Program-made: the position numbers and the translations under genes | IMG/VR virus record: IMGVR_UViG_3300002061_000002 | Coordinates: 1 to 32,187 of that record | Length of the DNA stretch: 32,187 nt | Direction: 5' to 3' (one strand) | From: a virus | Shown here: in pieces, positions 625-9,419 of the stretch | How positions within the stretch are numbered: position 1 is the first letter of the stretch | Layout of the letters: every line of letters starts with the position of its first letter | The notes under the pieces: generated by a model | The model's input: only the letters and a program-made list of their open reading frames with translations | Database searches by the model: none | Told to the model about the DNA's origin: nothing

Positions 625-806
625 ACAACAAAAGGTAGCGGTGCATTCTCATAAAATCCATTTTCCTCTGTGATTTTTTCTAACATACCTAACCCCTTGG
701 CCTTTTTCTTTAGTTCTTTCATCTGCCGCGGCGTTAGCACTATGTAGTAAGTACTACTTACAATCATGTCTATAAACATCTTGTCGTACTTAGTTGTTTT
801 GTTCAT
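621..806 (-). CDS. Hypothetical protein (61 aa) immediately upstream of terL
   Basis: ORF-track entry. Its stop overlaps the terL start (ATGA). It sits where small terminases often do, but no motif was recognised. Confidence 0.5.
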   Translation of the reverse strand: MNKTTKYDKMFIDMIVSSTYYIVLTPRQMKELKKKAKGLGMLEKITEENGFYENAPLPFVV

Positions 807-1233
807 ACTTGGCTATTTCATCCTCCATAAACTCCACTTCGGCAGTAGTGAATGTATGGCGGTATTTGTTTAGTAACTTGCGACTAGCTGTGTAGATAAT
901 TGTTTGCATAAGCTGGTTACGCTCTTGCTTGTCTTTTTCTTTCTCTATATCGTCTCGCTCGTCATAGGCACGTACTAGCATTTGGTCAATACGTATATGT
1001 GTTAGTTCGATATGGTTTTTCATGTGCCACCCGCCTAAAGTATTGCCTTTCATAAATAAATCGCTGTCTGAGTCGCGTAGCTGCGCGACTGCCTCTGTAT
1101 GTGCTGTCTGAATACTAAAAGCCGCTACCGCTGCATTGTAAATACACACCTCACCCTGGGGGCTTTGGGCGTGCAAGCTAACAAAGTAGATAGCGGGCTG
1201 GGTTGTTTGTTGTGGCTCGTTAAAACTGAGCAT
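790..1233 (-). CDS. Hypothetical protein with the start re-assigned to ATG 1233 (147 aa). The ORF-track start, GTG 1344, would read through a tRNA-like gene.
   Basis: The open frame is 790..1344. Codons 17-36 of that frame coincide with a complete tRNA-like fold (1235..1293). The first ATG after the fold is at 1233 (MLSFNEPQQ...). Confidence 0.5.
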   Translation of the reverse strand: MLSFNEPQQTTQPAIYFVSLHAQSPQGEVCIYNAAVAAFSIQTAHTEAVAQLRDSDSDLFMKGNTLGGWHMKNHIELTHIRIDQMLVRAYDERDDIEKEKDKQERNQLMQTIIYTASRKLLNKYRHTFTTAEVEFMEDEIAKYEQNN

Positions 1234-1234
1234 A

Positions 1235-1293
1235 CGCGTATGGTGTGAATCGAACACACGCACCAGCGGCTCTACCATCTGAGCTACATACGC
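1235..1293 (-). ncRNA. tRNA-like RNA with no anticodon arm (58 nt plus discriminator)
   Basis: The minus strand reads GCGTATG TA GCTC AGATGGTA GAGC CGCTGGTGC GTGTG TTCGATT CACAC CATACGC G. This gives a perfect 7-bp acceptor stem and a 4-bp D stem with a canonical GG loop. The T stem is a perfect 5 bp with a TTCGATT loop. Only 9 nt sit where the anticodon arm and variable loop belong. Confidence 0.6.
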
Positions 1294-1438: not shown

Positions 1439-1461
1439 GCTAGCCACGGCTGTAGGCTAGC
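1439..1461 (-). other. Hairpin with a 7-bp stem and 9-nt loop (GCTAGCC ... GGCTAGC)
   Basis: Perfect 7-bp inverted repeat read directly, 3 nt downstream of tRNA-like gene 1465..1549. No U-tract follows. Confidence 0.45.
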
Positions 1462-1464
1462 TTA

Positions 1465-1549
1465 TGGTACACGGCTGAATCGAACAGCATTTCCCGGTTC
1501 AAGTGTGGCCACACGGCCGGGCGTCTTACCAACTTAGACGACTAGTACC
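1465..1549 (-). ncRNA. tRNA-Gln-like RNA with a 12-nt palindrome interrupting the anticodon loop
   Basis: The minus strand reads GGTACTA GT CGTC TAAGTTGGTAA GACG CCCGG CC[GTGTGGCCACAC]TTGAA CCGGG AAAT GCTG TTCGATT CAGC C GTGTACC A. The D arm and anticodon stem resemble bacterial tRNA-Gln. The loop is 19 nt. The acceptor base has mismatches at 6:67 and 7:66, and the T stem at 49:65. Confidence 0.5.
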
Positions 1550-1680
1550 GTACATACCGGGTATAGCGTTGCATATTAGACAATCAACCCCGTAGAGTGT
1601 TTAGCCTGGTCGCTATCGCATATACCTAGTATGTAATGAGGGTTTTGTCCGGATTGTCCCTTATAAAGCGCCTAACAAGT

Positions 1681-1698
1681 ACGCACGTCACTCTAGGA
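1681..1698 (-). repeat. Third copy of the TAG(G)AGTGACGT motif, at the upstream edge of the non-coding island
   Basis: The minus strand has CTCCTAGAGTGACGTGCGT. It shares AGTGACGT plus TAG with the 1351..1370 copy. Confidence 0.45.
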
Positions 1699-1720
1699 GA
1701 AATGTGCCGGGGCGCCGGTA
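1697..1720 (-). terminator. Possible weak intrinsic terminator after ORF 1723..2268
   Basis: The minus strand has TACCGG CGCC CCGGCA followed by CATTTCTCC. The stem is 6 bp including one G-U pair, and the T-tract is modest. It starts 2 nt after the stop codon. Confidence 0.35.
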
Positions 1721-8205: not shown

Positions 8206-8664
8206 CTAATTATCACCCTCGGGTGTTTCGTTTGGCAAGGGGATAACTAGGTCTAGGTCGGTAGCCGCCCAGACTCTTACGCGTTCTACGTACTCCTCAA
8301 ACTCGATAGTATTTAGCGCCTCTGTACTGCCTCCCTTGGTTATTTCGGGGCTAAACTCACTTGCTACTGGGTTATGTAGTATTTTCATCTCCTCGTGTAT
8401 TTCCTGGGGCGTGTGGCCTGTGTGTGCTGCTATGTCAGCCACCACTACCGCCCAGTAGTAACCGTTCTGGTTACCACGCTTTGGATCGGCTCCGGTGCTT
8501 CGGGGCTTGTAGTACTTTTTGCTGTATATCCAGATTTTATCGCCGGGCTGGTAGTTGTTGTCTAAGTATATCTGCCATGCGGCTGGGTAATCGAGGCGAC
8601 TCTTTAAGGTGCCGTTTACCGTGTCGATAGTCGCTATAAAGCTGTGCATGTTTTTAGTACTCAT
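8206..8664 (-). CDS. NinB/Orf-like recombination mediator-type protein (152 aa)
   Basis: PRS...GNQNGYYWAVVVADIA..TGHT..EIHEEMK and STEALNTIEFEEYVERVRVWA parallel lambda NinB (RS.DQN..LW...GD... and STS....EF.ELLE.I.AF). This comparison is from memory. Confidence 0.45.
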   Translation of the reverse strand: MSTKNMHSFIATIDTVNGTLKSRLDYPAAWQIYLDNNYQPGDKIWIYSKKYYKPRSTGADPKRGNQNGYYWAVVVADIAAHTGHTPQEIHEEMKILHNPVASEFSPEITKGGSTEALNTIEFEEYVERVRVWAATDLDLVIPLPNETPEGDN

Positions 8665-9419
8665 ACTTTAAATAGTTTTTTTAGGTCGCGTTCTTTTTCT
8701 AGTTTTTTAAATACATGCTCGTATTCTTTACCTGCATGAAATTTATAGTGGCACTCTATACACACTAGTATTAGGTTTCTGTCGTTATGTAGTTCCGGGT
8801 GTCTAGGGTACTGGCTAGCAAAATATATATGGTGTACTTCATGTCTCGCTGTACCCATAGCGTTTATTTTGCATACTTCGCAAAAAGCGTACTCATGCTT
8901 CTTTATAAATTGTTTTCGGTAACGTCGGCACTCGTTTAAATGCTTATATGCTACTTTACTTTTACGGTTCTGAAAATTAGCGTGTGTATATTTTCCATTT
9001 TTAAAGTTAGGGTTATTTTTACCTACTCTTTTTTCTGCGTTGTATTTATACTGGCACTCTAGGTTACAAAACTTAGTTACATATAGTGCATTACCCGTAA
9101 AACTTTTACTGCATTGTTTACACTTTCTCTCTACTATTTTGTTTTTTCTCCGGTCTTCGCTTGCTTTTGTTATCTGCCTGGTTAGCTCGTAACTACAATC
9201 TGGGCTACAAGTTTTTTTATTTGTTTGGGTTCCACTAGTTATAGTAAAACTTTCGCCACATATCTGACATGCTTTTGTTTTAGCTTTAAAGCCGTAGTTA
9301 TCTTTAGCTGCACATTCTTTATTACAGTATTTTCTACTGCTCATTCTGCTAGGCGGTACTCTAAACTCGGTTTTACATACCTTACATTTTTTAGTTTTTA
9401 TGCTATATACTTCTGGCAT
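8661..9419 (-). CDS. HNH endonuclease with three N-terminal CxxC...(F/Y/T)C(S/N)xxC zinc-ribbon repeats (252 aa)
   Basis: The repeats are CKVCKTEF..YCNKEC, CQICGESF..TCSPDC and CKQCSKSF..FCNLEC. The C-terminal HNH core is HEVHHI....HNDRNLILVCIECHYKFH. Confidence 0.8.
   Translation of the reverse strand: MPEVYSIKTKKCKVCKTEFRVPPSRMSSRKYCNKECAAKDNYGFKAKTKACQICGESFTITSGTQTNKKTCSPDCSYELTRQITKASEDRRKNKIVERKCKQCSKSFTGNALYVTKFCNLECQYKYNAEKRVGKNNPNFKNGKYTHANFQNRKSKVAYKHLNECRRYRKQFIKKHEYAFCEVCKINAMGTARHEVHHIYFASQYPRHPELHNDRNLILVCIECHYKFHAGKEYEHVFKKLEKERDLKKLFKV

Follow-up and report, generated by a model that had tools for sequence, protein, structure and literature searches.

In this study, we analysed a transfer RNA (tRNA)-like gene, here called element A, in a stretch of viral DNA of 32,187 nucleotides (nt; positions 1 to 32,187 of IMG/VR record IMGVR_UViG_3300002061_000002), referred to as the window. 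Element A is an 85-nt tRNA-derived gene on the minus strand (1465..1549), whose anticodon loop is 19 nt long and holds a perfect 12-nt palindrome at its centre. On balance, a tRNA relic that no longer decodes, is not spliced and is probably still processed seems the best reading to us. It qualifies as a tRNA relic or pseudogene because relatives of the phage carry intact tRNAs in the syntenic place and because its lesion abolishes decoding. Disabled tRNA genes are a known kind of element, and the lesion of this one is unusual. Taken by itself, element A is of modest significance, as a clean case of a phage tRNA disabled by a self-pairing expansion of its loop with the core of the L shape intact. 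More interesting, and testable, is its setting: throughout the clade a tRNA lies 0-5 nt before a start codon, and two lineages keep an anticodon-less shape at that place.

Read from 1549 to 1465 on the minus strand, the element is GGTACTAG-TC-GTCT-AAGTTGGTA-AGAC-G-CCCGG-(CC GTGTGGCCACAC TTGAA)-CCGGG-AAAT-GCTG-TTCGATT-CAGC-CGTGTACC-A, with the loop in brackets. This is the register of the tRNA finder ARAGORN, with an acceptor stem of 8 base pairs (bp) and a T stem of 4 bp (8/4), and it is the better one. A preliminary description of the window had divided the same strand as GGTACTA-GT-CGTC-TAAGTTGGTAA-GACG-CCCGG-(loop)-CCGGG-AAAT-GCTG-TTCGATT-CAGC-CGTGTACC-A; direct reading confirmed the tRNA layout, and every arm lies where it had been placed. 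The G8, the absent position 26 and the 49:65 mismatch of that division all vanish in the 8/4 register, and of the mismatches that had been noted the tandem U.U and A.G of the acceptor stem persist. The acceptor 5' strand GGTACTAG (1542..1549) pairs with CGTGTACC (1466-1473) through six Watson-Crick pairs and this tandem, as seen both in the ARAGORN drawing and by direct reading; for the repaired molecule ARAGORN gives the layers G-C, G-C, U-A, A-U, C-G, U.U, A.G and G-C. A1465 is the discriminator. U8 and C9 (1541-1540) stand before the D arm GTCT-AAGTTGGTA-AGAC (1523..1539), which contains A14, G18G19 and A21, and G26 (1522) stands behind it. Next comes the anticodon arm (1493..1521), a 5-bp stem CCCGG/CCGGG (1517-1521 with 1493-1497) around the 19-nt loop (1498-1516), then a variable loop drawn by ARAGORN with 4 nt, and finally the T arm GCTG-TTCGATT-CAGC (1474..1488), with its 4-bp stem and a canonical T loop (T54, T55, C56, A58). 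All these arms are on the minus strand. The tertiary core is complete in the 8/4 register (U8, A14, G18G19, A21, G26, T54-T55-C56, A58 and G53:C61), 10 of the 12 layers of the stack formed by acceptor and T arm are paired, and the T loop TTCGATT and the GG of the D loop are kept. The defects besides the loop are the U.U and A.G of the acceptor, a C at position 33 and the T stem of only 4 bp.

As encoded, element A is missed by standard tools. ARAGORN at default settings found no tRNA gene in the entire window, and Rfam gave no match at element A, neither at the gathering score nor at E<=10. The encoded sequence reached an ARAGORN call only under the relaxed -ps80 setting, and the intron mode of ARAGORN was discarded, as the threshold needed to call element A was so lax that obvious false positives appeared nearby. 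Removal of the 12-nt palindrome in silico resulted in a default call of tRNA-Gln(TTG), in agreement with the preliminary description, which had predicted a Gln anticodon after this removal and had proposed to run a tRNA finder with and without the 12 nt; with ARAGORN at default the call is obtained only without them. As a control, each possible 12-mer was removed across the window and both strands of the resulting 32,055 constructs were searched with ARAGORN. Only eight of them, with deletions starting at 1498-1505 and lying within the loop of element A, yielded a tRNA call. Since the rescue is limited to these eight deletions, the likeness to a tRNA is specific and beyond chance, and element A is of tRNA origin. 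It does not qualify as a canonical tRNA, given the missing Rfam and default ARAGORN calls, the 19-nt loop and C33; the core of the cloverleaf is present.

The minimum free energy (MFE) fold of element A as encoded is a cloverleaf with an anticodon arm that is irregularly lengthened by the palindrome and capped by 4 nt. In this fold the loop region forms a 2x5 internal loop, a 4-bp helix and a 4-nt loop, and the anticodon is not displayed. Rfam, ARAGORN and the MFE fold thus agree with the earlier statement that no usable anticodon loop is encoded. The palindrome GTGTGGCCACAC (1503..1514) has no other copy in the window, nor one that differs at a single position, and a repeated palindrome or operator was therefore rejected. 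Perfect 12-nt palindromes as such are at chance level in the genome (5 observed versus about 6 in shuffles); special about this one is only its place in the middle of an anticodon loop.

The identity as tRNA-Gln, as proposed in the preliminary description, holds weakly for the body of the molecule and is ambiguous for the anticodon. The body seems weakly Gln-like: its sole matches among 50,697 phage records are weak ones (E=0.6), all to the tRNA-Gln of D29-like mycobacteriophages, and its D arm matches the one in the D29 tRNA-Gln almost completely. The anticodon depends on which 12 nt are deleted: offsets 1-3 give Gln-UUG (loops ACTTGAA or CCTTGAA) and offsets 4-8 give His-GUG (CCGTGAA, CCGTGTA, CCGTGTG). 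The assignment to Gln by anticodon is ambiguous because the choice of the 12 nt that count as the insert is arbitrary. More generally, that a sequence looks like a tRNA once an insert is removed does not fix the isotype, Gln and His being equally obtainable here. C33 in place of U33 remains after any 12-nt deletion in the loop, as had been noted for one of them, and the codon usage of the phage makes no special demand for either CAA or CAC.

The interpretation turns on the context in related phages, which were gathered with a terminase fragment and a 147-amino-acid (aa) protein from protein, metagenome, viral and genome collections and are labelled here with L and a number. They form a clade of phages of about 30-36 kb from environmental, mostly freshwater and groundwater, metagenomes. 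In the relatives that have 54-79% terminase identity, the packaging genes are headed by a cassette with a common order: an upstream motif, tRNA 1, a hairpin with the loop ACAGCCGT, a spacer, tRNA 2 and a start codon. Slot 1 is occupied by a class II tRNA (Leu-UAG, Ser-GCU or Tyr-GUA), the spacer is about 100 nt long and can be aligned as a homolog of the spacer in the window, and slot 2 holds tRNA-Ile(UAU). This pair of tRNAs precedes the same 147-aa gene and terminase in L007, L010, L012, L014, L016, L030, L044, L117 and L120. L118 has the same layout, with a called tRNA-Ile(UAU) and a slot-1 Tyr-GUA (~52-128) that is seen by eye, is not called by ARAGORN and has no GG in its D loop. Thus, ordinary intact tRNAs, and no palindrome, are found at the place of element A. 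The preliminary description had named an intact tRNA-Gln in close relatives, together with decay elsewhere in this copy, as the mark of a simple pseudogene. This condition is largely borne out: intact tRNAs and additional defects were both observed, although a tRNA-Gln in slot 1 was seen in none of the relatives. Searches for element A itself found nothing with the same loop in viral, metagenome and genome collections: an exact-pattern scan of viral contigs that allowed a variable loop gave no homolog, the 19-mer of the D arm is absent from viral collections and from 185,579 genomes, and megablast and blastn against annotated phages gave no relative of the region.

A further disrupted slot-1 tRNA was found in L015 (4011-4091). 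It starts with GTTGCAAC, has a disrupted anticodon arm and is missed by ARAGORN at default; with the threshold relaxed, the program reports it with a loop of 8 nt ('acat'). No clean deletion rescues this element, a poor tRNA with a weak anticodon stem, and a recurrent design with a palindrome in the loop was rejected. From these comparisons, the cassette seems to turn over and to decay fast.

The second tRNA of the cassette is disabled as well. Element B (1235..1293, minus strand), 171 nt downstream of element A, is the ortholog of the tRNA-Ile(UAU) of the clade with a 14-nt internal deletion. The preliminary description had reported an anticodon-less tRNA-like element here, and it is real: the Rfam tRNA model matches 1293..1235 with 44.5 bits (gathering score 29), with 18 positions of the anticodon arm replaced by 5 nt. 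Alignment to the tRNA-Ile(TAT) of L030, L007, L117 and L118 shows that the single 14-nt deletion takes the anticodon together with the 3' half of its stem, and the pairing of the acceptor, D and T stems is perfect. The codon usage fits a loss of Ile-UAU decoding in this phage. ATA makes up 0.36 of the Ile codons in the window, the lowest AUA usage among close relatives, versus 0.63-0.98 in relatives that keep tRNA-Ile(UAU); the share is 49% in L001 and 50% in L088, which is without the tRNA. For Leu, the share of CTA is 48% in the window versus up to 90% in relatives that keep tRNA-Leu(UAG). The loss of tRNA-Ile(UAU) together with the drop in AUA is a small natural experiment on the co-evolution of phage tRNAs and codon usage. 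Short sequences are common to the two elements: the halves of the palindrome of element A (GTGTG/CACAC, 1503-1514) equal both strands of the T stem of element B (1243-1259), and the 9-mer GTTCGATTC of the T loop is identical in A (1477-1485) and B (1247-1255) and differs from the T loops of the relatives. This sharing may be a coincidence or may reflect concerted evolution or templated mutation.

Element B abuts a start codon. The 147-aa gene ahead of the large terminase (790..1233, minus strand) begins with an ATG at 1233-1231, 1 nt past the discriminator of element B (1235), and homologs of the protein align starting at residue 1; the gene is also among those called on the source contig. At least 13 distinct relatives have only 0-5 nt, counted from the 3' end given by ARAGORN, between the terminal tRNA of a cluster and the ATG of an open reading frame (ORF), which leaves no space for a leader. 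The junctions are at L001 1023-1095 and 8652-8700, L007 310-385, L009 3098-3184, L010 4773-4849 and L015 4211-4287, and others are found in L012, L014, L020, L030, L044, L056 and L117. CCA is encoded by none of the tRNAs examined in the relatives. At the second L001 junction, a 47-nt minimal tRNA-like element (8652-8698) ends 1 nt ahead of the terminase ATG; it consists of a 7-bp acceptor, a small hairpin ATTG-TCTGG-CAAT and the T arm GCCGG-TTCAAGT-CCGGC, and is a second, independent anticodon-less tRNA shape at a start codon. The abutment of tRNA and ATG suggests that processing of the tRNA 3' end yields a leaderless or near-leaderless messenger RNA (mRNA), similar to the punctuation known from mitochondria. 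A second perfect 12-nt palindrome, CATACGCGTATG, was observed at 1231-1242; it consists of the 3' acceptor strand of element B plus G-U-AUG. Since it spans the ATG, the start codon could pair with the 3' strand of element B in an alternative hairpin.

Based on these comparisons, we propose the following course of events. In this lineage the 7-nt anticodon loop of the slot-1 tRNA would have expanded to 19 nt, and the extra bases would pair with each other as a palindrome, so that the anticodon arm becomes a rod and the anticodon is hidden. Slot 2 would have lost its anticodon by the 14-nt deletion in element B. Both elements keep the helix of acceptor and T arm and the elbow of D loop and T loop, the part that is recognised by ribonuclease P (RNase P) and RNase Z. 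A consensus scan found no intrinsic terminator between element A, element B and the ATG, and because no terminator intervenes, the cassette is predicted to be transcribed from the conserved upstream motif along with the packaging genes. The RNase P and RNase Z of the host would still cut both elements out of this transcript, and the 12 nt of element A would stay in. Cleavage behind element B, 1 nt before the AUG, would release a near-leaderless mRNA; uncut, the start codon would sit right behind a stable structure. Element B would thus have a reason to be retained, as cleavage would free the start codon. For element A no comparable purpose is evident, and the relic would be tolerated or, at most, kept within a processed leader.

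Several points weigh against this proposal. That the 12 nt were inserted is something we infer, the closest relative having only 79% terminase identity, and the lack of a tRNA-Gln in slot 1 of the relatives makes element A a replacement with no strict ortholog. The two adjacent acceptor mismatches may impair recognition by RNase P and RNase Z and weaken the step in which element A is still processed. The impression that only the anticodon domain was lost is partly an effect of ascertainment, given that the scanner demanded an intact T arm and acceptor. The absence of a Shine-Dalgarno sequence ahead of the 147-aa gene is uninformative, because the genome barely uses them (Shine-Dalgarno-like sequences precede only 6 of 53 genes, and leaders are A/T-rich). 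Finally, element A lies in the largest non-coding region of a tightly packed genome (1722..1234, 489 nt, between a 181-aa gene and the 147-aa gene), and together with its intact core this could mean selection for some function.

It is tempting to speculate that such a function is one of shape. Tentatively, element A, element B and the minihelix of L001 could all be punctuation marks that are kept for their shape by phages that no longer need them for decoding and are cut by RNase P and RNase Z to give near-leaderless mRNAs; we regard this as less likely than not. In element A, the self-complementary loop might in addition allow dimerisation or block enzymes directed at the anticodon. The comparison is with the t-elements of plant mitochondria, non-decoding tRNA-like structures that are thought to be cis signals for RNase P and RNase Z and to set mRNA ends (Forner et al. 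2007, PMC1920247). As in that system, element B and the element of L001 adjoin a start codon in the same way as the real tRNAs of the relatives, and the minihelix and elbow are kept in A and B. In contrast to it, the elements belong to a phage of bacteria and their cleavage is predicted, element A is not at the end of an mRNA or coding region (it is followed by a hairpin, the 171-nt spacer and then element B), and A and B are recent derivatives of identifiable genes of the tRNA-Gln type and of tRNA-Ile(UAU). If cutting by RNase P and RNase Z at the junction makes the 5' end of the mRNA, a bacterial virus would be using tRNA punctuation, and the persistence of tRNA relics in compact genomes would be explained.

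A function in trans is rather unlikely. Element A, along with element B, would then be a selected tRNA-shaped non-coding RNA, either a decoy for host factors or defence toxins that read the acceptor end or the elbow, or an RNA that dimerises through its loop. In an open loop, the 12-nt palindrome could pair between two molecules. In favour of this are the intact invariants of the tertiary core, with only the anticodon domain altered, the presence of two anticodon-less elements in one cassette and the independent origin of a third in L001, the 9-mer common to A and B and the size of the non-coding stretch. However, the viral, metagenome and genome collections gave no homolog of A with such a loop, the lesion of L015 is different and unstructured, which shows that the design is not recurrent, and the acceptor stem of A has two mismatches. 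In addition, one 14-nt deletion accounts for element B, no partner protein is encoded nearby, and the open full-text literature searched holds nothing specific on anticodon-less tRNA decoys, or on tRNA punctuation, in phages.

That element A is a fully neutral pseudogene, unprocessed or processed without consequence and simply not yet deleted, is unlikely as well. The intact tRNAs of the relatives, the several independent defects of A and the fast turnover of the cassette (Leu, Ser or Tyr in slot 1, degenerate copies in L015 and L118) would all fit. Against it, the core is intact with its 10 of 12 helix layers paired, and useless DNA is usually purged from phage genomes. Moreover, the RNA next to element A carries a hairpin (GCTAGCC-TACAGCCGT-GGCTAGC, 1439..1461, minus strand) that begins 4 nt past its end and also follows the slot-1 tRNA in relatives (L030 ~252-279; L007 ~213-240; L117 ~153-178; L118 ~131-156). 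Its stem is 100% paired in five phages with compensatory changes in 6 of 7 pairs, and the loop ACAGCCGT is invariant. By this pattern the hairpin is under clear structural selection, so that the surrounding RNA is functional. A classical terminator was ruled out for it, as no U-tract follows, and a protein-binding or processing site is possible.

It is improbable that the palindrome, which holds TGGCCA, acts as a DNA site for a dimeric protein, be it an operator, a packaging site or a restriction-modification site within a dead tRNA gene. The perfect dyad precedes the 147-aa gene and terminase by about 270 bp, GGCC occurs twice within element A although it is under-represented in the genome (observed-to-expected ratio (O/E) 0.55), and the phage encodes a ParB-N/methyltransferase-like protein and an HNH nuclease. 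However, neither the palindrome nor its half-sites are repeated in the window, 12-nt palindromes are at chance frequency, the relatives show ordinary tRNAs instead of a palindrome at the equivalent place, and a binding protein cannot be assigned. A phage attachment site (attP) overlapping the tRNA was rejected, with no integrase among the ORFs >=180 aa and the D-arm 19-mer absent from the 185,579 genomes.

Removal of the 12 nt as a mini-intron or otherwise, to give a mature tRNA-Gln(UUG) or tRNA-His(GUG), is very improbable: although ARAGORN at default calls a tRNA whichever 12 neighbouring loop bases are taken out, and the 8-bp acceptor followed by A, with GUG at the 5' side of the loop, resembles the (8/4) tRNA-His of phages (PMC5389517), a bulge-helix-bulge (BHB; two 3-nt bulges separated by a 4-bp helix) can neither be drawn by hand around the insert nor be seen in the fold with its 2x5 internal loop and 4-bp helix, self-splicing introns are much longer than 12 nt, a bacterial host is indicated, neither a splicing endonuclease nor an RNA ligase is found among all phage ORFs >=180 aa, every product has C33 and the tandem acceptor mismatches, the partner tRNA B is irreparably deleted and the demand for CAA or CAC is not special. 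A group I intron was ruled out on size (12 nt versus a core of about 200 nt or more) and Rfam gave no intron match; in this the preliminary description, which had dismissed both a group I intron and a BHB, was borne out. Its choice between a deliberately non-decoding gene and one dependent on an excision was not upheld, in view of the intact tRNAs in the syntenic slots of the relatives, the further defects of A, the simple deletion in B, the fallen AUA usage, the lack of enzymes for splicing and ligation and the bacterial host.

The reading of element A as a tRNA relic places it next to several known systems. tRNA pseudogenes and partial tRNA genes of prokaryotes have been discussed before (PMC9897764). 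Like those of prokaryotes and phages, element A is tRNA-derived, carries a disabling lesion, is undetected by standard tools and has intact tRNAs at its locus in relatives. Unlike them, its lesion is a self-complementary 12-nt expansion in mid loop and not a truncation by an integrating element, and it keeps the core of the L shape and sits in a conserved, apparently transcribed cassette. The (8/4) tRNA-His of phages has an 8-bp acceptor followed by A73, and some allo-tRNAs are believed to take no part in translation (Mukai et al. 2017, PMC5389517). Element A shares with this group the 12-layer 8+4 branch, the A73 discriminator and the source in phages and metagenomes, and differs from it by the lack of a long variable arm or Sec-like D arm, by the two acceptor mismatches and by the self-closing 19-nt loop. 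With intron-containing tRNAs (archaeal with BHB, bacterial with group I introns) it has in common the additional nt in the anticodon loop and the call restored by their removal in silico; in contrast, its insert lies 5' of or across the anticodon instead of at 37/38, is 12 nt long and has no BHB, and the host is bacterial with no enzyme for removal. The tRNA-like domain of transfer-messenger RNA (tmRNA), the bacterial Y RNA YrlA and mascRNA also show features of the acceptor/T arm and the elbow without an anticodon, whereas element A has no Rfam match and keeps a full cloverleaf with no mRNA-like or Ro-binding module.

Upstream of element A, the conserved motif TCCTAGAG..GCGTACTTGTTAGGCGC (TCCTAGA..; 1668..1698, minus strand) is a candidate promoter or operator of the cassette transcript. 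Its 17-nt core GCGTACTTGTTAGGCGC (1668-1684) is identical in L117, where the motif (1-29) is upstream of the tRNA-Leu, and the flanking protein of phages sharing this identical core is merely 56% identical. In the window, L117 and L001 the motif is followed by GACAA..GACAAAACC. Where the 181-aa gene ends, a consensus scan placed a G+C-rich, terminator-like hairpin directly behind the stop codon (1705..1720); this hairpin would set the cassette apart from the operon upstream of it. Between motif and element A, an irregular hairpin of about 85 nt (1551-1635, minus strand) was observed that ends 1 nt before the 5' end of element A; its z score is -3.06 and 1 of 200 shuffles folds as well. It is missing in L117, where the distance from motif to tRNA is about 36 nt versus 119 nt in the window. 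For the whole 476-nt leader the global structure was not significant (z = -0.09).

The window is essentially the complete genome of a tailed phage, taken from a source contig of 32,193 nt, and every gene is on the minus strand. Another copy of the phage (32,257 nt) was identical in 10 of 10 tested proteins. Encoded are a head protein, a helicase, an exonuclease, the ParB-N/methyltransferase-like protein, HNH and Peptidase_M23. Because Peptidase_M23 is a cell-wall hydrolase, the host is taken to be bacterial, and an archaeal host was rejected on the same ground. A host look-up via genome contigs yielded only bins of metagenome-assembled genomes with mixed taxonomy, probably binned phage contigs, and the 181-aa upstream protein has no relatives in viral contigs. 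Among the tRNAs of more distant relatives, a suppressor-type tRNA with anticodon UUA lies 5 nt ahead of an ORF (L056 461-533; L107 1094-1166), and in L001 a class-I-shaped tRNA with anticodon CAA, for the Leu codon UUG, directly adjoins an ATG (1023-1094). These tRNAs may point to recoding or unusual identities. Finally, GATC is strongly avoided in the genome (8 observed versus about 55 expected, O/E 0.15), and the avoidance of GGCC, despite its two occurrences inside element A, is moderate. Together with the rare Shine-Dalgarno sequences and the A/T-rich leaders, this hints at the nature of the host and its restriction systems.

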